NCBI GenBank assembly: GCA_963662265.2
Contig: CAXXHA010000035.1
Coordinates: forward strand, 1 to 64,000
DNA from: Spirochaetia bacterium
GTDB lineage: Bacteria > Spirochaetota > Spirochaetia > CADAEX01
Length of the DNA: 64,000 bases
Reading direction: 5' to 3'
Positions 53,355 through 60,625 of the stretch are shown here, piece by piece. Position 1 is the first letter of the stretch, and the number at the start of each line of letters is the position of its first letter. Under the pieces are notes generated by a model. It did no database searches, was not told where the DNA came from, and saw only the letters and a list, made by a program, of their open reading frames with translations. A program made the translations under genes and the position numbers.

Positions 53355-55427
53355 TTAAAAATTCTTTCCGTATTTCCGCCATATCTTGAGTGCTATGCCA
53401 AGCGGCTCAATCATAGGCACTGTATAGGTATGAAAATCCTTCCTGTAGAGGTAATCCCTTATGTTCATTACATATTCAGAAAAACCTCTCGGGGAAACTA
53501 TCATCGGCTTGGTCATTGAATTCTTCAGGTCAACAAGCCTGTCTGCAAGGTATTCAGAAAGGAACGGCACCTGCAGGTACAGTGCAGTTATTATGCTGTC
53601 GACCTGGGGATCTTTATCTATGATTCTGAGAGCTTCGAGCAGCCTGTTGTCATCACAGTCCCCAAGCAGGTCTACAGGGTTTTTCCCGAATGTTTTTTTT
53701 GCCCCTATAAGCTCTCTCAATGCATGTTTTGTCTCATCTGTAAATTCCGCAAGCTTCATTCCGTATTCTGTGATCTGGTCTGCAAGGAGAATTCCTGCTC
53801 CCCCCCCTACAGTTACTATTGCCACCCTGTCGCCGTGTGCCACCGGGTTTGTTGTCAGGAGTGAAAGAACATTTACAAGAATTTTCGGGTCCTCGGTAAG
53901 GTCTTCGATCATATAGAATCCCGCCTGTCTGCAGCATGCCTTGAAAGCCTCAACATTCCCTGCAAGGGATGCTGTGTGTGAAAGAGTCGCTTCGGCACCC
54001 CCTCCGATACCACCCTTTATGATAAATACAGGTTTCTTCTTGGTTACTTTCTTTCCGATTTCCAGAAACTGCTTTCCGTTCTTTATTCCCTCGAGATAGA
54101 TTGCAATTACACTTATGTTGGGATCTTCTCCCATGTGATCAAGGATTTCCGGAAGTCCTACGCCGCTTGCATTCCCGATGGAAACAAGCTTTCCAAGTTT
54201 CATGTTATCTGCCCTCATCATCTCGAGAATCTCAAGGCCGATTCCTCCACTCTGTGAGATTATTCCGATTCCGTTGGGCTCTTCAATAATACTTGATCTG
54301 TGTTCCGGTATGAAAAAAGTGTTCAGCCCTGCAAAATTATTGACAGCTCCCAGGCAGTTCGGCCCGAGGTATGCAACGCCGTATTTTCTGCTTGTTTCAA
54401 CAAGCTTGTCTTCGAGGTCTTTTCTTCCGACTTCTGCGAATCCGTCACTCAGGATAATCGCCCCTTTTCCCCCTTTCTTGCAGAACTCTTCAAAGTCCTT
54501 TACTGTGCCTTCTGCATTTATAATGAAGACACCTACATCGGGAGGCTCAGGCAGTTCATCAATATTTTTATAGCACTTCAGCCCCTGCACATAGTCCCTG
54601 TGGGGATTTACCGGGTACAGTTTTTTTATCCTCATACAGTTTTTGAGAATAATTCCCCCCATGGTCCCCGGACGGGATGCCCCGAAGACAGCAACAGATT
54701 CCGGGTTCAGCACTTTTTCAAGGCTTGCCCTTACATCGGCTGGTATTTCAGAGAAATTTTCTTTGAAAACAGGTTCTCCCTTGATGATTCTGGCATCAAC
54801 AAGAGCATATCCCTCCCTGTAAAGTACGACCGGGTTGAGGTCTATCTCCAGTATTTCCGGGTTTTCCGCCATCAGCCTTGATATGTTTCTGGCAATTGCA
54901 ATGATTGCTTTTTTGTCAAGATTTTCTCCCCTGTAGCCGTCTATTATTTTTCCAGCCCTGGTGAGTGAGAGCATTTCCTCCAAATCGCTGTCTTCAAGAA
55001 GGCCTATTCCGGGGGCTGTGTCTGCAAGCAGTTCCACGTATTTTCCTCCGGAACCTACTATTATAAGAGGTCCGAAAACCGGGTCCTGATGTGCCCCGAC
55101 AAGGACTTCAAAACCTGATGACGCCATTTTCTGTATAAGGAATTCCTCCGGTTCTGAGTAGCCGGCATTTACTGCATTTCTTACAATACTGTCTCTGGCT
55201 TCAATAAGGGACTCTTTGTCTTTTATATTCAGGATAACTGCCCCGATATCTGATTTATGAACAATCTCCTCGGCATGGGCTTTTAATACAACAGGGTATC
55301 CCAGTTTTTTCGCAGCATTTATCAGGGAACTTTCATCAGAGGCAGCTATATCTCCTGATACATCAATTTTATAGTTTTCCAGAAGTTTTTTTGTCGCTGA
55401 AAAATCAATTTGTTTTCTGTCAGGCAT
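53355..55427 (-). CDS. ADP-forming acetate/acyl-CoA ligase, fused with the ATP-grasp part first
   Basis: N-terminal GYPVVLK..HKSDIGAV, DPVFGP, DLNPV, VDAR; then CoA-binding AVFGAS, GPNCLG, ISQSGG, SHTASLAG (phospho-His), NPVD. Confidence 0.9.
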   Translation of the reverse strand: MPDRKQIDFSATKKLLENYKIDVSGDIAASDESSLINAAKKLGYPVVLKAHAEEIVHKSDIGAVILNIKDKESLIEARDSIVRNAVNAGYSEPEEFLIQKMASSGFEVLVGAHQDPVFGPLIIVGSGGKYVELLADTAPGIGLLEDSDLEEMLSLTRAGKIIDGYRGENLDKKAIIAIARNISRLMAENPEILEIDLNPVVLYREGYALVDARIIKGEPVFKENFSEIPADVRASLEKVLNPESVAVFGASRPGTMGGIILKNCMRIKKLYPVNPHRDYVQGLKCYKNIDELPEPPDVGVFIINAEGTVKDFEEFCKKGGKGAIILSDGFAEVGRKDLEDKLVETSRKYGVAYLGPNCLGAVNNFAGLNTFFIPEHRSSIIEEPNGIGIISQSGGIGLEILEMMRADNMKLGKLVSIGNASGVGLPEILDHMGEDPNISVIAIYLEGIKNGKQFLEIGKKVTKKKPVFIIKGGIGGGAEATLSHTASLAGNVEAFKACCRQAGFYMIEDLTEDPKILVNVLSLLTTNPVAHGDRVAIVTVGGGAGILLADQITEYGMKLAEFTDETKHALRELIGAKKTFGKNPVDLLGDCDDNRLLEALRIIDKDPQVDSIITALYLQVPFLSEYLADRLVDLKNSMTKPMIVSPRGFSEYVMNIRDYLYRKDFHTYTVPMIEPLGIALKIWRKYGKNF

Positions 55428-55734
55428 AATCGGATCTCCTTTTTCATCGGATTTAATTGATTCGTTAAAATCTGGTTTAGTCGACAGAATAAATCAGGTT
55501 TAAATCTGCAGTCTGCTGCATTTCCTCTGACTTTAAACCAGCTGATTATGTTTTAAATTTTAGTCTGAAAAGCGCCATAAGTCCACCAAAAAATATTTGC
55601 TTAAAATGTTCAAGAGGCGAATATAAAACAAGAATATGCAGGATAAGAGAATAATATGCGGCCGGAGATTTCCCCGTTATTTTCATTTTTAATATTGATA
55701 TTACATAACTGAAAAATCTCCTTTTCCAAGGGCC

Positions 55735-57069
55735 TTAAGTCTTTAAGACCCTGTGCTTTAATATGTAATAAACTGTAATGACAAGTGTTAGTATTTCCGC
55801 TGCCGGAACTGCCAGCCATATACCTATATTCCCCAGAAATAACGGAAGTAAAAGAATTCCTGCTGCAACAAATATCAGTCCCCTTGAAGAAGCTATAGCT
55901 GCGGATTCACCAGCTTTCTGCACAGATGTGAAATAGGCCGAAGCAGTAATATTGAGTCCTGAAATAAGAAAAGCAAAGCTGAAGTATCTGGCAATTTCAG
56001 TGACAATTGCATCGAGACTGCTTTCCTTTCCTGTAAAGATATGCGCAAGTATATCCGCCTTGATATAAACTGCTGCAAAGAAAATTACTCCTGCTGCAAG
56101 GTTGAAGAAGAGCCCGAGCAGAAACATTTTTCTTATTCTCTCCTTTTTACCGGCTCCGTAACAGAAATTTATTTCAGGCTGGATTGACTGGGCAGATGCG
56201 AAAAATATCATTACTGCAATTATCATTATATAGTTGAATATGCTGAATGCGGAAACACCTTCAGAGCCTATCCTTTTCATAAGCGTGATATTGAAAAGAT
56301 ATGCGGTAATACCGGCCGACATTTCATTTATGAATTCCGATGCACCGTTGTATATAATCCTGAAGACAGATTTCACAGGTATAAGAGGGCTTGTGAACCT
56401 GAACATCGATGCTTTTGAATAAAAAAATGATATCTGGGCAATCCCTGCTGCAAGCTGTGAAATCCCTGTTGCATAGGCTGCTCCTGTAAGCCCGTATCCC
56501 AGTTTCCCGACAAAGAGCCAGTCAAGAAAAATGTTGAGAACTGCTCCTGATGTCAGGATAATAAGTGAAAAGCCGGGAGATCCTGAATTCCTTATAAATG
56601 CGTCAAATGTATATGTAATTACAAGGGGGAGAATGAAATAAAGTATTACTGTAAGGTATTCAGATACATAACTGTTTATATATTTATCTGCTCCCAGGAG
56701 GCTTATAAGCTGTTCTTTGAACAGGAGTCCTGCTGCTGAAAATAATATAGAAAATACAGTTATAACAGTTACTGTTGCACTGAAATACCTGTCCCCCTCT
56801 TCAAGTCTTTTTCCCCCCTTCAACGCTGCTGCTACAGTGCTTCCTCCCATGGCAATCATTACACTTATGCCGAAAGATACGCTGACAAGCGGATATGAGA
56901 GGTTTATGGCAGCTATCCCGTGAGGCCCTACATATCTCCCTACAAATATACCGTCAACTATCCAGGCTGTTGTCATTGCAAGCAGCCCGAAAACCGAAGG
57001 TATGAGGTTTTTTATAAATATTGTAAGTACCCGGTCTCTGCCGGGCCTTACACGTAGATTTAAATTCAT
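55735..57069 (-). CDS. MATE efflux transporter
   Basis: VDGIFVG..IAAINL, LNIFLDWLF..GAAYAT..Q, QPEI..YGA, GIWLA. Confidence 0.92.
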   Translation of the reverse strand: MNLNLRVRPGRDRVLTIFIKNLIPSVFGLLAMTTAWIVDGIFVGRYVGPHGIAAINLSYPLVSVSFGISVMIAMGGSTVAAALKGGKRLEEGDRYFSATVTVITVFSILFSAAGLLFKEQLISLLGADKYINSYVSEYLTVILYFILPLVITYTFDAFIRNSGSPGFSLIILTSGAVLNIFLDWLFVGKLGYGLTGAAYATGISQLAAGIAQISFFYSKASMFRFTSPLIPVKSVFRIIYNGASEFINEMSAGITAYLFNITLMKRIGSEGVSAFSIFNYIMIIAVMIFFASAQSIQPEINFCYGAGKKERIRKMFLLGLFFNLAAGVIFFAAVYIKADILAHIFTGKESSLDAIVTEIARYFSFAFLISGLNITASAYFTSVQKAGESAAIASSRGLIFVAAGILLLPLFLGNIGIWLAVPAAEILTLVITVYYILKHRVLKT

Positions 57070-57201
57070 TCTTTTTGTACTCCTGTTTTGAATTTCAGAT
57101 TCAGAGCTGAAATTCCATGTAATTACTGCTGTTCCGGAAATATGCTTTTTCCTGCAGTCGAAATCCTGTTTCTCAAACTGTAAAAATGTTAAAATGAATA
57201 A

Positions 57202-58305
57202 TCAGAAATTCCGTTTTCCGAGTTTTTTGACATCTTTTATCATCTTTGCAAGGTTTTTTCCTTTTTCCCTTTCAATTTTCACAGCCTGTTCATCCTGTTT
57301 CATCCTCAGGTAATTTACCTCTTTCATCAGGTCGAGGTAGTTTTCATACCTTCTGTATTCAAGTTCCCCCGAGAGAAGAGCCTCCTGCACTGCACAGCCC
57401 GGTTCCCCCTGGTGAGAGCAGTCTTTGTACCTGCAGTTTTGTGCAAACCTGCTTATATCGCTGAAAGTCTCTGAAGTGCTTTCCTCACCTGCCCAGAGCT
57501 GTACCTCTTTAAGGCCGGGAGAATCTATAAGCATTATTCCTGATTCAAGAAGGAAAAGCTCCCTGTGGGTTGTCGTATGCATCCCTTTCAGGTCTCCCTC
57601 TCTCTGTTCTTTTGTTTTCTGAAGCTTCTTCCCTGCAAGGGTATTTATCAGTGTTGATTTTCCAACCCCGGAAGGTCCTGTGAATGCTATTGTTGAACCT
57701 TTCCTGAGTCCCGAAATAAATTCTTCGACTCCTTCTCCTGTCTGTGCGCTTATAAGCAGTATTTCAACACCGGGTGCGCAGTTTTCCGCTTTGAGAAGAG
57801 CTCTTTCCCTGTCATCCTCATCTGCAAGATCTGACTTGTTCAGTATTACAACAGGAACAGCCCCGCTTTCCCATGCAAGGGTAAGGTATCTTTCGAGAGC
57901 CCCTTCGGTGAAATTCCTTCCTCCGTGAATCCCGAATACAAGCCCTATGTAATCTATGTTTGCAGCTATTACCTGCTCCTCGGTTTTTTCACCTGCAGCT
58001 TTCCTTGAAAACCTGCTTTTCCTTTCAATTACCTCCTCGATAATGCAGAAGTCCTCATCCCCCTTCCTGTATAGAACCCAGTCCCCTATAACAGGATAAT
58101 CTGATGAACAGACTGCCCTGTACCTGAATGCGCCTGAAATTTCAGCATTGAGTATTTTCTCTCCTGCGGCTATCTGGTAGAGATGCCTTGTTTCCCTGAT
58201 AACTCTTCCCGGTTCCAGATCCGTGTTTCTGAATCTTTCCATCGAAGCTTCAAATATTTTGTCCCATCCCCATATTTTTAAGTTATTTTTCTTTATATTA
58301 TCCAT
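57202..58305 (-). CDS. rsgA: RsgA/YjeQ-family circularly permuted GTPase
   Basis: OB-fold N-terminus, NKSD, GPSGVGKSTLIN, GMHTTT, DSPG, CRYKDCSH.GEPGCAV zinc finger. Confidence 0.93.
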   Translation of the reverse strand: MDNIKKNNLKIWGWDKIFEASMERFRNTDLEPGRVIRETRHLYQIAAGEKILNAEISGAFRYRAVCSSDYPVIGDWVLYRKGDEDFCIIEEVIERKSRFSRKAAGEKTEEQVIAANIDYIGLVFGIHGGRNFTEGALERYLTLAWESGAVPVVILNKSDLADEDDRERALLKAENCAPGVEILLISAQTGEGVEEFISGLRKGSTIAFTGPSGVGKSTLINTLAGKKLQKTKEQREGDLKGMHTTTHRELFLLESGIMLIDSPGLKEVQLWAGEESTSETFSDISRFAQNCRYKDCSHQGEPGCAVQEALLSGELEYRRYENYLDLMKEVNYLRMKQDEQAVKIEREKGKNLAKMIKDVKKLGKRNF

Positions 58306-58450
58306 CTGTATTTATCCTGTATCATTAAACTGTTTATACAATAATTATTATCTATTCTACAGATTTTACCGTACTTTATAATGCTTTCGAAAATTTTCCG
58401 AAATATTTCTCCTGCCGCCTTTTCTTCCGGCAGATGCCTGAAGACCGCGA

Positions 58451-58822
58451 TCATACTATTTTCCCTATCGTATTTTCCGCCGGAAAGGGGAGCATTGTAA
58501 TAGGTTTTGCAGCAAGAGTGAAAATAAGCATCTCATTATCATCTGCAGCAATTCTGTTTGCCCGTATGAAACCGCATGAAATGCATCTGTGAATTATTGA
58601 CCACTCCTTGTTCTGCCGTACCCAGACAGATATGGGTTCCATCAGACCCCGGCATCCGCATCTTCTGTCACCCTTTTTAAGGTCTACATGGAGACTCCAC
58701 AGGCATTTCGGGCAGTGGTTTCTCATTTTTCCCCCTGATTCAGGAGGAGCTACTATTGTTCCGCAGTTTCTGCAGATAAATGTTTCTTCTGTGTTTTTAT
58801 GTATTATCCTGTTTCTGGACAT
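58451..58822 (-). CDS. RNHCP-domain protein
   Basis: FICRNCG, RNHCPKCLWSLHVD..GDR, CRGLMEP, IHRC..CG..NRIAADD; AAGGAG RBS. Confidence 0.93.
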   Translation of the reverse strand: MSRNRIIHKNTEETFICRNCGTIVAPPESGGKMRNHCPKCLWSLHVDLKKGDRRCGCRGLMEPISVWVRQNKEWSIIHRCISCGFIRANRIAADDNEMLIFTLAAKPITMLPFPAENTIGKIV

Positions 58823-58952
58823 GCTTTTCTCCTTTGATGTAAAAATGATCCGAAGCCGTATTTTTATGACAGGGGAATTACCAGACTGCAGAATATGCTG
58901 CCTGTGCCTGAATAAAATTTCCGGTATCCGGGTATTTATAGTGAGATAGATT

Positions 58953-59179
58953 AAAGATGTCCTGTTCGTGGAAATGTAAAGATTTCTTGTGAGGATAAAA
59001 CGGATTAGTGTGATTTGCCTGATTTTCGGTATCCCGCCAGTTATCTGGCTGTTTTACTGAATCTCAGTCAGGTTTTATTACTTCTTGATATATAAAATAT
59101 TATAAGGTTAGCAATATAATCCGGCTTATTCCTGAACAGGAACATCCTTGATTACAAAAGCTGACATAAACGCCTCCTT
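58953..59179 (-). promoter_or_regulatory. structured 5' leader / candidate ribosome-dependent attenuator of the RNHCP-rsgA operon
   Basis: Nested inverted repeats: 59129-59149 with 58953-58973, 59117-59123 with 59001-59007, 59068-59072 with 59018-59022, plus two small hairpins. Confidence 0.55.
59126..59167 (-). CDS. putative leader peptide MSAFVIKDVPVQE (13 aa)
   Basis: AAGGAGG (59179-59173) 5 nt before ATG; TAA at 59128-59126; TTGACG upstream (59227-59222). Confidence 0.6.
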   Translation of the reverse strand: MSAFVIKDVPVQE

Positions 59180-59364
59180 TTTATACGTCTTATTAAGAGA
59201 GATATCATACTGTCTGTATATCGTCAATAGTTTTTCTTCTTCCTGAAAAACTGTACTCATATTGTGATAAAAATACTGGCTGTCTGAGAAGTATATAAAT
59301 TCTTCAGCGACTTTATTTTTATGGTTTTGAAGAAGTATCTGAAATAAAAAAGTGTAAATAAAGC

Positions 59365-59411
59365 TTGCCAATTTTGTAAACGTTTACTATACTGCTTTAG
59401 TAAACGTTTGC
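59365..59411 (+). promoter_or_regulatory. sigma70 promoter with two LacI-type operators
   Basis: TTGCCA (59365)-17 nt-TATACT (59388); palindrome GTAAACGTTTAC (59376-59387) in the spacer and GTAAACGTTTGC (59400-59411). Confidence 0.75.
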
Positions 59412-59445
59412 AGAAAAATTAAATTTGATCTGGTTTTATATAATT

Positions 59446-60447
59446 ATGGATACTACAATTAAAGATATAGCTAAAATAGCAGGTGTTTCATATGCCACAG
59501 TCTCCCGTGCTCTCAATGACAAGTATGGTGTAAATCCTGCTACCAGGGATGAAATCCTCAGGATTGCAGAGGAGCTGAATTACAGTCCCAATGCTATTGC
59601 AAGAGGGCTTGTAAAAAAGCAGACACACACAGTAGGTCTTATAATTCCTGATATAACAAACCCGTTTTTTCCTGAAGTTGCACGCGGTGCTGAAGATCTT
59701 CTTGAAAAAGAGGGGTACAGCGTATTTTTATGTAACTCAAACTGGGAAAAGACGAGAGAAAACAAGTATATAAATCTTCTGATTGAAAAGAGGGTTGACG
59801 GTCTTGTTATAGCGCCATCTTCAAGTATTGTTTCAGATAATGACAGGAAGCAGTTTGAAAGGCTTCCTGTTGTTCTTATGAGCGGTGTCCAGCCTGGCAG
59901 CGGAACAGATTCGGTAGTTCTCAACAATATCAAGGGTGGCTATATTGCGGGACAGTATTTACTCGGCAAAGGGCGGAGAAAATTCTGCTTTCTGGGGGGC
60001 TCTGAGGATTCCTTCTCTGTAAAGGAAAGATATTCTGGTTTTCTTAAATCAGTTGAAGGGTATGACGGGTGCGTCCTTTCTCCCGATATGATTAAATTCG
60101 GCGATTACAGGGAAAAGAGCGGGTACACGATAATGAACAACCTTATATCTGAAGGAAAAATACCTGATGCAGTATTTGCATCAAATGACCTTCTGGCTCT
60201 GGGTGCAATACAGGCTATAAGTGATAAAGGGCTTAAGATTCCCGAGGATATTTCTGTAGTCGGATTTGACAATATTGCAACAGCTTCATTCAGGGGAATT
60301 GAACTTACAACAATAGAACATCCGAAATACAGGATGGGGGAACTTGCGGTAAAAATACTCCTGGAAAGGATTGAAAATCCGGGAAAGGAAGAAAAAGAGA
60401 CACGGGTGGTTCTGGATCCGGAACTTATTATCAGGAAAACAGCCTGA
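59446..60447 (+). CDS. LacI-family repressor, likely regulator of the iol genes
   Basis: TIKDIAKIAGVSYATVSRALN, NYSPNAIARGL, ITNPFF, IPEDISVVGFDN, LTTI. Confidence 0.95.
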   Translation: MDTTIKDIAKIAGVSYATVSRALNDKYGVNPATRDEILRIAEELNYSPNAIARGLVKKQTHTVGLIIPDITNPFFPEVARGAEDLLEKEGYSVFLCNSNWEKTRENKYINLLIEKRVDGLVIAPSSSIVSDNDRKQFERLPVVLMSGVQPGSGTDSVVLNNIKGGYIAGQYLLGKGRRKFCFLGGSEDSFSVKERYSGFLKSVEGYDGCVLSPDMIKFGDYREKSGYTIMNNLISEGKIPDAVFASNDLLALGAIQAISDKGLKIPEDISVVGFDNIATASFRGIELTTIEHPKYRMGELAVKILLERIENPGKEEKETRVVLDPELIIRKTA

Positions 60448-60467
60448 TTTTGAGTTTTACCGTTTTT

Positions 60468-60479
60468 ACAAACGTTTAC
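60468..60479. promoter_or_regulatory. third LacI-type operator upstream of iolB
   Basis: ACAAACGTTTAC, matching the palindrome at 59376. Confidence 0.65.
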
Positions 60480-60625
60480 GAAAAGCTTTTGTTTGGAAAA
60501 ACAATTGAAATTTTACCTAAAAAACATGATATTGCCGGATTTTTTACTATCCGGATATTTATAAATTTCAGCCTGAAACAGGCATCAGACAGTAAATAAA
60601 AATTATTCAACAGGAGGAATAAATA

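Follow-up and report, generated by a model that had tools for sequence, protein, structure and literature searches.

A conserved short-ORF leader upstream of RNHCP and rsgA genes and its proposed action as a ribosome-sensing switch

Does a ribosome travelling along a short leader open reading frame (ORF) turn the next genes on, as in erm-type control, or turn them off? The question is posed by a locus on the minus strand of a 64,000-nucleotide (nt) stretch of Spirochaetia bacterium DNA (GenBank assembly GCA_963662265.2, contig CAXXHA010000035.1, positions 1 to 64,000; hereafter the window), where a 13-codon upstream ORF (uORF) precedes the genes for an RNHCP-domain protein and an RsgA-type GTPase and overlaps one strand of a long-range RNA helix. 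A preliminary description of this locus, made from the sequence letters, had read the leader as an attenuator in which a stalled ribosome would induce the genes downstream. Judged by its recurrence in front of the same gene, the leader is a conserved regulatory feature and not a product of chance. Full-text literature searches returned chemistry papers only for 'RNHCP', nothing for 'PF12647' and nothing for RsgA combined with leader peptide and attenuation, and they turned up no description of the module or the leader; both the leader and the two-protein (or fused) module are conserved and previously undescribed. As to mechanism, we tentatively favor a translational switch with a polarity opposite to that of erm.

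The leader ORF and its long-range helix

A protein search with RNHCP returned 260 relatives, the nearest named ones belonging to the Spirochaetales, and an alignment of 43 RNHCP homologues was used to fetch 80 loci from species-representative genomes. Following searches of these loci with nhmmer, blastn and then a profile, a segment made up of a Shine-Dalgarno (SD) sequence, an ATG and a uORF turned up in 17 of them (L001-L004, L011, L013-L015, L018, L020, L021, L023-L025, L033, L034 and L036), at a distance of 121-351 nt upstream of RNHCP. These loci come from Spirochaetota, Leptospirales, SAR324 and Desulfovibrionales (Maridesulfovibrio, Desulfobaculum). The postulate of a regulatory leader in which a uORF overlaps a long-range helix was thereby borne out, with other uORF leaders present elsewhere. 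The window and the 17 related loci make up the set of 18 leaders to which the counts below refer. All 18 keep the uORF ATG, and an in-frame stop gives ORFs of 10-17 codons.

The TTGACG and AAGGAGG elements, the 13-codon ORF and the stretch complementary to it (58973-58953) all lie where the preliminary description had placed them on the minus strand (Table 1). In 10 of the 17 related loci there is a sigma-70-like promoter pair whose −10 element ends 28-33 nt ahead of the uORF ATG, and the distance in the window, 31 nt from the end of TATCTC, is the same as that of the relatives' promoters. The window −10 element is weak (TATCTC, preceded by TGa); the TTGACG/TATCTC pair was not listed by a consensus promoter scan, and a simple scoring script ranked another pair higher. 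With a promoter just upstream of it, the uORF would therefore be the first cistron of the transcript. A separate promoter just before RNHCP, which would have spoken against leader control, was not seen: the minus strand has no promoter-like site between the uORF and RNHCP. An 81-codon ORF starting at TTG 59371 enters the uORF in frame (59126-59371). Because it overlaps the promoter-like elements and lacks a counterpart in the relatives, it is probably not a gene.

What is conserved in the uORF is not its peptide. The peptides differ among the 18 leaders, which share no arrest peptide or motif, and a +X+ or RLR-type arrest motif is absent from the window's leader class. In the window, L001, L002 and L003, the uORF frame gives the conserved nucleotide motif GGAUGUUCCUGUUC the reading ..(K/R)DVPVQ..; a 1-nt indel changes this to ..R(R/M)(M/V)FL(F/L)-stop in L004, L013, L015, L018, L020, L024 and L033. 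Since the same nucleotides are used in two frames, the constraint on the uORF 3′ half acts on the RNA and not on the peptide, and an arrest peptide of the erm kind is therefore unlikely.

Each leader carries a downstream box, with the consensus GAACAGGACAUC, that is complementary to this 3′ half. In the window, the core of the resulting helix, which we call P1, is the duplex AAGGAUGU(U)CCUGUUC (59149-59134) : GAACAGGACAUCUU (58967-58954), with one bulged U and an energy of −20.7 kcal/mol; from uORF strand to box it spans 167 nt. The 5′ strand starts at +18 to +22 and ends at +30 to +36 from the A of the ATG in 18/18 leaders, with 33 to 216 nt between the box and the RNHCP start. As controls, the downstream part of each leader was shuffled 300 times with dinucleotide content preserved. 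An equally good partner for the uORF strand arose in 1/300 shuffles for the window and in at most 9/300 for 15 of the 18 leaders; the weaker results were those of L021 (20), L036 (45) and L025 (125). Both strands of L011 deviate from the consensus, and its score was still 1/300. In a MAFFT alignment of the leaders, 77.8% of the P1 cells are paired, compared with 41-47% after displacement of the 3′ partner by 1-3 columns, and the G-U pairs fit only the RNA of the sense strand. In 15/18 leaders, pairing of the box with the uORF strand has an ensemble probability of 0.5 or more. A few compensatory changes can be seen by eye (L004, L033, L036, L011 and L018/L020).

P1 closes a larger domain. The fold of 59200-58815 has an energy of −87.1 kcal/mol, compared with a mean of −70.6 for dinucleotide shuffles (standard deviation 5.0; z −3.31; 0/100 shuffles as low), and the long-range helix with its nested helices is present in both the minimum free energy (MFE) and the centroid structure. 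The single consistent multi-helix fold anticipated by the preliminary description, including the nested CCGGAUUA/UAAUCCG pair and two hairpins, was thus recovered. The AGGA/AUCCU and GGAUUA/UAAUCC pairs of the inner domain recur in relatives, for example as GGAAUUA/UAAUUCC in L003, and a motif related to the single-stranded loop beside the box, ACAGAAAAUCU, is present in L001, L002 and L003. Both P1 strands and this loop motif are conserved in sequence well past the needs of pairing. We also considered, and dropped, pairing of uORF codons 2-5 with the ACAGAAAAUCU loop as a pseudoknot, which suits L003 by eye but not the window. The distance from box to ATG is 130 nt in the window versus 33-44 nt in its closest leader relatives, which lack the extra stem-loop domain listed in Table 1. 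No Rfam 15 family matched the leader: the top score in 55000-60500, 21 bits, fell short of a gathering score of 100 and came from the opposite strand or from sequence beyond the leader. An Rfam scan of 28 of the 80 loci gave tRNA, tmRNA and a single distant fluoride riboswitch, and nothing else.

Predicted pairing of the box with the RNHCP start

The box has a second potential partner. Its GGACAU is the exact complement of AUGUCC, the start and Ser codons of RNHCP, and the uORF strand (strand 1) and the RNHCP start (strand 3) are alike, GAUGUUCCUG vs CAUGUCCAG, both being complementary to the box. At the RNHCP N terminus, M-S-R is the same in all 43 homologs aligned, in contrast to the roughly ten residues after it; part of this conservation may lie at the RNA level, with AUGUCC pairing with the box in the window's leader class. 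The duplex GGACAUCUUU : AAAAGCAUGUCC formed by box and start in the window has an energy of −11.5 kcal/mol (p = 0.006 from 500 mononucleotide shuffles), and box and start pair with p < 0.05 in 6/18 leaders. When the 3′ half of the box and its flank were paired with the ribosome-binding site (RBS), the result fell below 5% of dinucleotide shuffles in 9/18 leaders, with 0/400 for L001 and L003. The 3′ flank of the box carries complements of each leader's own SD, and the RNHCP RBS of L004 repeats the box sequence. For seven leaders with short box-to-start spacing, GGACAU:AUGUCC was the only consensus helix given by RNAalifold (6 pairs, no covariation). The comparison of folds with and without the uORF blocked, which had been proposed as a check, was made for the window: in the uORF-masked MFE structure, GGACAUCUUU (58962-58953) pairs with AAAAG.CAUGUCC (58828-58817) at the RNHCP start.

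Ribosome states were modelled in ensemble calculations for the 18 leaders by masking a footprint at the start or the stop codon of the uORF. The mean probability of P1 was 0.68 in the free RNA, 0.69 with arrest at the start codon and 0.17 with arrest at the stop codon, and that of box:RBS pairing was 0.06, 0.07 and 0.21, respectively; the mean unpaired fraction of AUG..+5 was 0.34, 0.43 and 0.23. The corresponding values for the window were 0.86, 0.85 and 0.00 for P1, 0.00, 0.01 and 0.59 for box:RBS pairing and 0.27, 0.26 and 0.17 for AUG..+5. Across the set, the accessibility of AUG..+5 was lower in the stop than in the start state in 13/18 leaders and higher in 2, and a separate calculation with the uORF masked lowered RBS accessibility by at least 0.02 in 11/18 leaders and raised it in 3. 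These results run counter to the idea that a ribosome on the uORF acts as the inducer. Because the box released from P1 is complementary to the RNHCP start, a ribosome on the uORF 3′ half is predicted to repress and not to induce.

The elements can be assembled into a ribosome-sensing, three-strand translational switch of the RNHCP-rsgA operon, a reading to which we would give a little less than an even chance. Strand 1, the anti-sequestor, would be the 3′ half of the constitutively initiated 13-codon uORF (+19 to +34); strand 2, the box 167 nt downstream, would be shared; and strand 3, the RNHCP ribosome-binding region (spacer, AUG and Ser codon), would be the target. With strand 1 empty of ribosomes, P1 (1:2) would form and the RNHCP start would be free. 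Ribosomes elongating or terminating through the uORF 3′ half would melt P1, and the box with its 3′ flank would fold onto the RNHCP SD and AUG. A ribosome held at or near the uORF start codon has a footprint that should end just before P1 (+18), so that P1 would stay intact and the RBS open. Output of RNHCP and RsgA would then be inverse to the ribosome flux through the end of the uORF: low during brisk translation, and high when initiation capacity drops or ribosomes are held at the uORF start. RsgA acts on the 30S subunit, and some inhibitors arrest ribosomes at start codons. The elements with their conservation, complementarities and calculated ensembles are what the analysis shows; the polarity, opposite to that of erm, and the signal, translation or 30S stress, are inferred.

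Other leader classes and rival explanations

Leaders of other kinds precede the same genes at other loci. When the 500 nt before the module's first gene were compared among 78 loci, 56 of these fell into nine sequence-related groups. The largest, with 21 loci, is mostly from Lachnospiraceae (e.g. L049:3535-3925); its uORF is SD-led, 8-13 codons long, and reaches its stop inside the 5′ arm of a strong hairpin, GCAAxGGCUAU..AUAGCCxUUGC. The uORF is followed by a Mor-family gene (PF08765, 88-106 aa) and then by RNHCP or a fused RsgA-RNHCP gene, and the Mor-like gene's RBS, AUG and codons 2-3 have their complement in the 3′ arm of the hairpin together with its flank. Three of the 21 loci were dropped for lack of a start motif or ORF; in the 18 others the shuffle test for the hairpin arm gave at most 6/300 matches in 9 and 16-112 in the other 9. 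The leader of this group has the same three-strand layout in unrelated sequence.

Two further classes look different. Six Bacteroidota loci (L005:4800-5012, L006, L007, L008, L010:868-1081 and L016; mean column identity 82%) have a 10-codon uORF without an SD (e.g. MIKNILVRVK), which ends in R-V-K in 5/6. Its last codons and stop pair with positions −17 to −8 of the RNHCP start in a helix that encloses four hairpins with some compensatory changes, and third-strand pairing was significant in 0/6 loci. The Firmicutes class, of 5-11 loci (L028:3604-3942, L051, L054, L059, L076 and L078; weaker, L072, L029, L050, L062 and L077), stands before a fused RsgA-RNHCP gene. Its SD-led uORF, of 9-14 codons, contains AAGGUGG, and the leader also carries a ACCUUUCGUGAAUACUG box, which is conserved, and two intrinsic terminators in succession. 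At still other loci, from Photobacterium, Pseudoalteromonas, Tenacibaculum and a 381-kb megaplasmid of Vibrio coralliilyticus, a TetR-family gene lies directly upstream of RNHCP-rsgA and there is no uORF leader. An operator-like palindrome, ACTGACTGCACrGTCAGTCA, is common to two of these loci (L009 and L019), where it precedes RNHCP by about 70-100 nt.

Several results weigh against the three-strand switch. The sequestor was not significant in 9/18 leaders, nor in the window when the box 3′ half and flank served as query (132/400), and the predicted shifts in accessibility are modest (window AUG from 0.27 to 0.17). In formal tests P1 does not covary significantly: the 77.8% of paired cells compares with 76.6% in column shuffles, double-change pairs number 5 where 4.6 are expected from column shuffles, and RNAalifold on the gappy 18-sequence MAFFT alignment failed to recover P1. 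P1 is supported by conserved complementarity, position, shuffles and the few compensatory changes, without statistically significant covariation. Codons 2-5 of the uORF have only a weak third-position excess of variation (entropy sums 4.38/5.17/5.69); that the uORF is translated is something we infer. The Bacteroidota class points to the opposite polarity, so that neither would be universal. In the Firmicutes class, masking of the uORF left terminator 1 intact in 6/6 MFE folds and no antiterminator was identified, which gives no support either way. Finally, the 145-nt gap between RNHCP and rsgA in the window (58306-58450) contains two promoter-like sites (58390-58363 and 58325-58297), whereas the relatives have the two genes overlapping or directly adjoining; in this genome, rsgA may have acquired a promoter of its own.

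The explanation of the preliminary description, in which a ribosome stalled in the uORF by an antibiotic or stress melts P1 and thereby activates RNHCP-rsgA as in erm, cat or hflXr, seems unlikely for the window. An SD-led short ORF lying over a helix is the anatomy of a leader-peptide attenuator, basic residues are frequent at uORF positions 6-7, and passages of a study of hflXr describe a precedent with a 14-aa leader ORF and alternative RNA structures (PMC6310831). Moreover, the Bacteroidota helix covers the RNHCP start and has no third strand, and its opening should therefore activate, and two terminators after the uORF in the Firmicutes class imply a default OFF state. In the window's own class, however, the strand freed from P1 complements the RNHCP start and the calculations point to a less accessible RBS; the two-frame reading of the peptide 3′ half leaves no conserved arrest peptide; and no terminator or RBS-sequestering helix was found that the opening of P1 would dissolve. 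The switched terminator that had been looked for is likewise missing, as the minus strand of 59126-58822 shows no terminator-like site and none is seen in the short leaders.

It is somewhat less likely again that a protein or small ligand binds the structured leader (for example in feedback by RNHCP or RsgA, or as the 30S subunit), the ATG and SD serving structure or standby binding. Such a binding site would suit the conservation of the P1 strands and loop motif beyond pairing, the unconserved peptide with its weak codon-position signal, and the prediction of RNHCP as a zinc-ribbon-type protein. Yet the SD spacing, ATG and in-frame stop (10-17 codons) are kept in 18/18 leaders despite the frame change between subgroups, four sequence-unrelated leader classes all start with a short ORF, and there is no Rfam family match. 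Control of transcript fate, with the uORF and P1 gating access of Rho or a ribonuclease to a C-rich, G-poor stretch before the RNHCP RBS, is in our view quite improbable. tnaC and mgtL are precedents for leader-ORF control of this kind, and C exceeds G between uORF stop and box in 18/18 leaders (850 C vs 664 G over whole leaders; C/G of 1.4-3.5 in the best 60-nt windows), with a 24-nt single-stranded C-rich loop flanking the box. The bias is modest, however, and such control would not explain why the box is complementary to AUGUCC and the SD. Chance complementarity in an AT-rich intergenic region, for which the weak −10 element and nothing further could be cited, is scarcely credible given that 17 further genomes, from four lineages, keep sequence and architecture before this gene, and given the shuffle controls.

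The RNHCP-RsgA module and its relation to known systems

As the preliminary description had it, the genes downstream of the leader are co-oriented, with matches to PF12647, PF03193 and MatE (Table 1). The RNHCP residues R34, N35, H36, C37, C17, C20, C40, C57, C80 and C83 are invariant in 43 sequences. By sequence RNHCP has no relative in the PDB, and a protein atlas gave RNHCP clusters only; a Foldseek search with an AF2 model (mean pLDDT 78) found generic zinc-ribbon subunits only, at a best E of 0.15. The GTPase scores 175 bits with TIGR00157 (cut-off 100) and stays under the housekeeping equivalog cut-offs of PRK12288 and PRK12289 (178 vs 360 and 128 vs 483 bits). It aligns to solved RsgA/YjeQ/YloQ structures over the OB, GTPase and zinc-finger regions (E about 3e-32; residues 47-331 with 1t9h). 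Its P-loop (G210, S212, G213, G215, K216, S217) and zinc motif (C291, C296, H298, C304) are invariant in the GTPase alignment, and a basic C-terminal tail is conserved among the RNHCP-linked copies. The window holds one rsgA copy.

RsgA homologs flank RNHCP or are fused with it in 55 of the 80 loci, RNHCP coming first in 32 and RsgA in 23. In 20 of the 23 RsgA-first loci the two form a single continuous ORF, and all five fused ORFs tested carry both PF03193 and PF12647. No RsgA was found within 5 kb in the other 25 loci, one of which, L008, ends 57 nt after RNHCP. The proposed pairing of RNHCP with an RsgA-type GTPase thus stands, and gene adjacency and fusion support the view that the two are partners. 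The MATE efflux gene, which had been included in the module, is a neighbor only: tblastn with the MATE protein found it at 0/80 related loci, and we excluded it from the operon on this ground. The 132-nt gap before it contains an AU-rich hairpin and no clear terminator.

Downstream neighbors were collected as 71 candidate ORFs, of which 49 co-directional ones were scanned and 22 on the opposite strand left out. GNAT acetyltransferases account for 7/49, from four phyla, and NCBIfam gives no specific family for them; single instances are an APH-like kinase at L063 and an RsmF-like 16S rRNA methyltransferase at L028. We considered and rejected the idea of a mobile resistance gene, as RNHCP occurs on 4/72,556 plasmid records, all of them large replicons. 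In actinobacteria, tandem RNHCP genes without rsgA were seen on a Streptomyces plasmid (L082:3500-4970) and in Nonomuraea (L083:3646-4357); in the former, an FBP_C (treble-clef zinc finger) gene comes next, and mobile-element genes and a short stretch annotated as an aminoglycoside phosphotransferase are nearby. On the other side of the leader promoter in the window, a near-perfect inverted repeat (GTAAACGTTTAC type, 59372-59415), probably a LacI-type operator, precedes a divergent LacI-family gene (59425-60447), after which come IolB/KduI-like and thiamine-diphosphate-enzyme-like genes. This repeat gave spurious mir-287 matches on both strands.

Table 1. Positions of the leader elements and genes in the window and of neighboring genes at related loci
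Feature	Position	Strand	Basis
Promoter-like elements: TTGACG 59227-59222, 17-nt spacer, TATCTC 59204-59199, TG 59207-59206	59199..59227	-	read directly
Shine-Dalgarno AAGGAGG of uORF, 5 nt before ATG	59173..59179	-	purine-rich SD kept in 18-leader alignment
uORF, 13 codons and stop, ATG 59167 to TAA 59126, MSAFVIKDVPVQE	59126..59167	-	read directly
P1 5′ strand AAGGAUGUUCCUGUUC, uORF nt +19 to +34; proposed anti-sequestor, mimic of RNHCP start	59134..59149	-	
Inner multi-helix domain within P1	58992..59133	-	MFE and centroid folds
Inner-domain helix, AGGAAUAAG with UUUUAUCCU	59133-59125 with 59000-58992	-	
Inner-domain helix, CCGGAUUA with UAAUCCG	59124-59117 with 59007-59001	-	
Inner-domain hairpins	59068-59056 and 59049-59036	-	
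3′-side internal loop CACAAGAAAUCUUUACAUUUCCAC, 24 nt, single-stranded, C-rich, G-poor, beside box	58968..58991	-	
Box, P1 3′ strand GAACAGGACAUCUUU, common to P1 and proposed sequestor	58953..58967	-	
Extra stem-loop domain between box and RNHCP RBS	58848..58927	-	
RNHCP ribosome-binding region: SD AAAGGAG 58835-58829, ATG 58822-58820, Ser UCC 58819-58817; proposed sequestor target	58817..58835	-	
RNHCP-domain protein, 123 aa, Cys/His-rich	58451..58822	-	PF12647, E 1.5e-37, 127.8 bits vs cut-off 24
RsgA-family GTPase, 367 aa, Lys-rich C-terminal tail	57202..58305	-	PF03193, E 1.1e-45
MATE efflux gene, neighbor only	55735..57069	-	PF01554, MatE E 1.4e-34
TetR-linked loci	L009:4329-5001, L019:4316-5001, L012:4344-5001, L081:3336-5432		
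GNAT neighbors	L005:6435-6965, L006:6431-6961, L009:6429-6956, L018:6555-7013, L029:5391-6197, L053:5376-6083, L078:5434-6351; also L049:3057-3500		

Coupling to, or fusion with, an RsgA-type GTPase gives RNHCP (PF12647) its first functional context, the 30S subunit. The several uORF leaders, the TetR and GNAT neighbors and an antibiotic-induced RsgA paralog of Streptomyces (see below) fit the pattern of an inducible antibiotic-response gene; for a possible role of RNHCP-RsgA in ribosome protection or rescue, this context is circumstantial. The general idea of the preliminary description, ribosome-dependent control of a translation-stress module, fits as well. Its stress- or drug-inducible character is made plausible by TetR (three loci and the Vibrio megaplasmid), the GNAT neighbors and a WhiB7/WblC-target RsgA paralog; the erm-like mechanism attached to it is unsupported. 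A far wider proposal is that RNHCP with a dedicated RsgA-type GTPase forms a widespread, unrecognized 30S-directed system for stress or antibiotic response, wired in most phyla to at least four unrelated uORF leaders or to TetR, with the window leader acting as a peptide-independent sensor of ribosome flux. We regard this proposal, taken whole, as speculative and rather doubtful. The anti-sequestor of the window leader would sit inside the uORF just past the footprint of an initiating ribosome, and the ON conditions would be initiation failure, immature 30S subunits and drugs that trap ribosomes at start codons. If the leader works as a switch of this kind, it would be a logic not described for bacterial leader ORFs, in which ribosome traffic represses and faltering translation relieves, without a dedicated arrest peptide.

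ermC and cat/cmlA are controlled by leader-peptide translational attenuation. The window leader resembles erm and cat in its SD-led short leader ORF, in the mutually exclusive helices, one of them over the leader ORF, and in the predicted regulation of access to a downstream RBS. Unlike ermC, cat and cmlA, it has no conserved arrest peptide, the same nucleotides being read in two frames, and it uses three strands where theirs use four. The predicted polarity is also inverted, in that the helix formed upon occupancy of the leader ORF would close the RBS, and the long-range helix (167 nt) encloses a multi-helix domain. In tnaC, mgtL, toiL-topAI and the coat-replicase region of phage MS2, the position of a ribosome on an upstream ORF likewise sets the downstream RNA fold and the expression of the next gene. 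There, stalling or passage upstream activates that gene, whereas in the window the ribosome is predicted to shut the downstream RBS.

Two systems resemble the module in the GTPase itself. According to passages of one study, WblC/WhiB7 directly targets SCO6149, an RsgA/EngC paralog of Streptomyces coelicolor and the first gene of its operon, with a 29-fold enrichment in chromatin immunoprecipitation and 68.4-fold WblC-dependent expression with tetracycline (PMC7157823). SCO5211 is named there as its paralog and is absent from the supplementary files searched. [quoted passage not shown] What it has in common with the window is a short leader ORF, with alternative RNA structures, that precedes the gene for a paralog of a housekeeping ribosome-associated GTPase (PMC6310831). 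The window leader differs in having neither a terminator nor an RLR motif, and its GTPase is of the 30S-acting RsgA type and coupled to RNHCP. By its regulatory pattern, RNHCP-RsgA would be a candidate 30S-side counterpart of HflXr or of the ABC-F factors.

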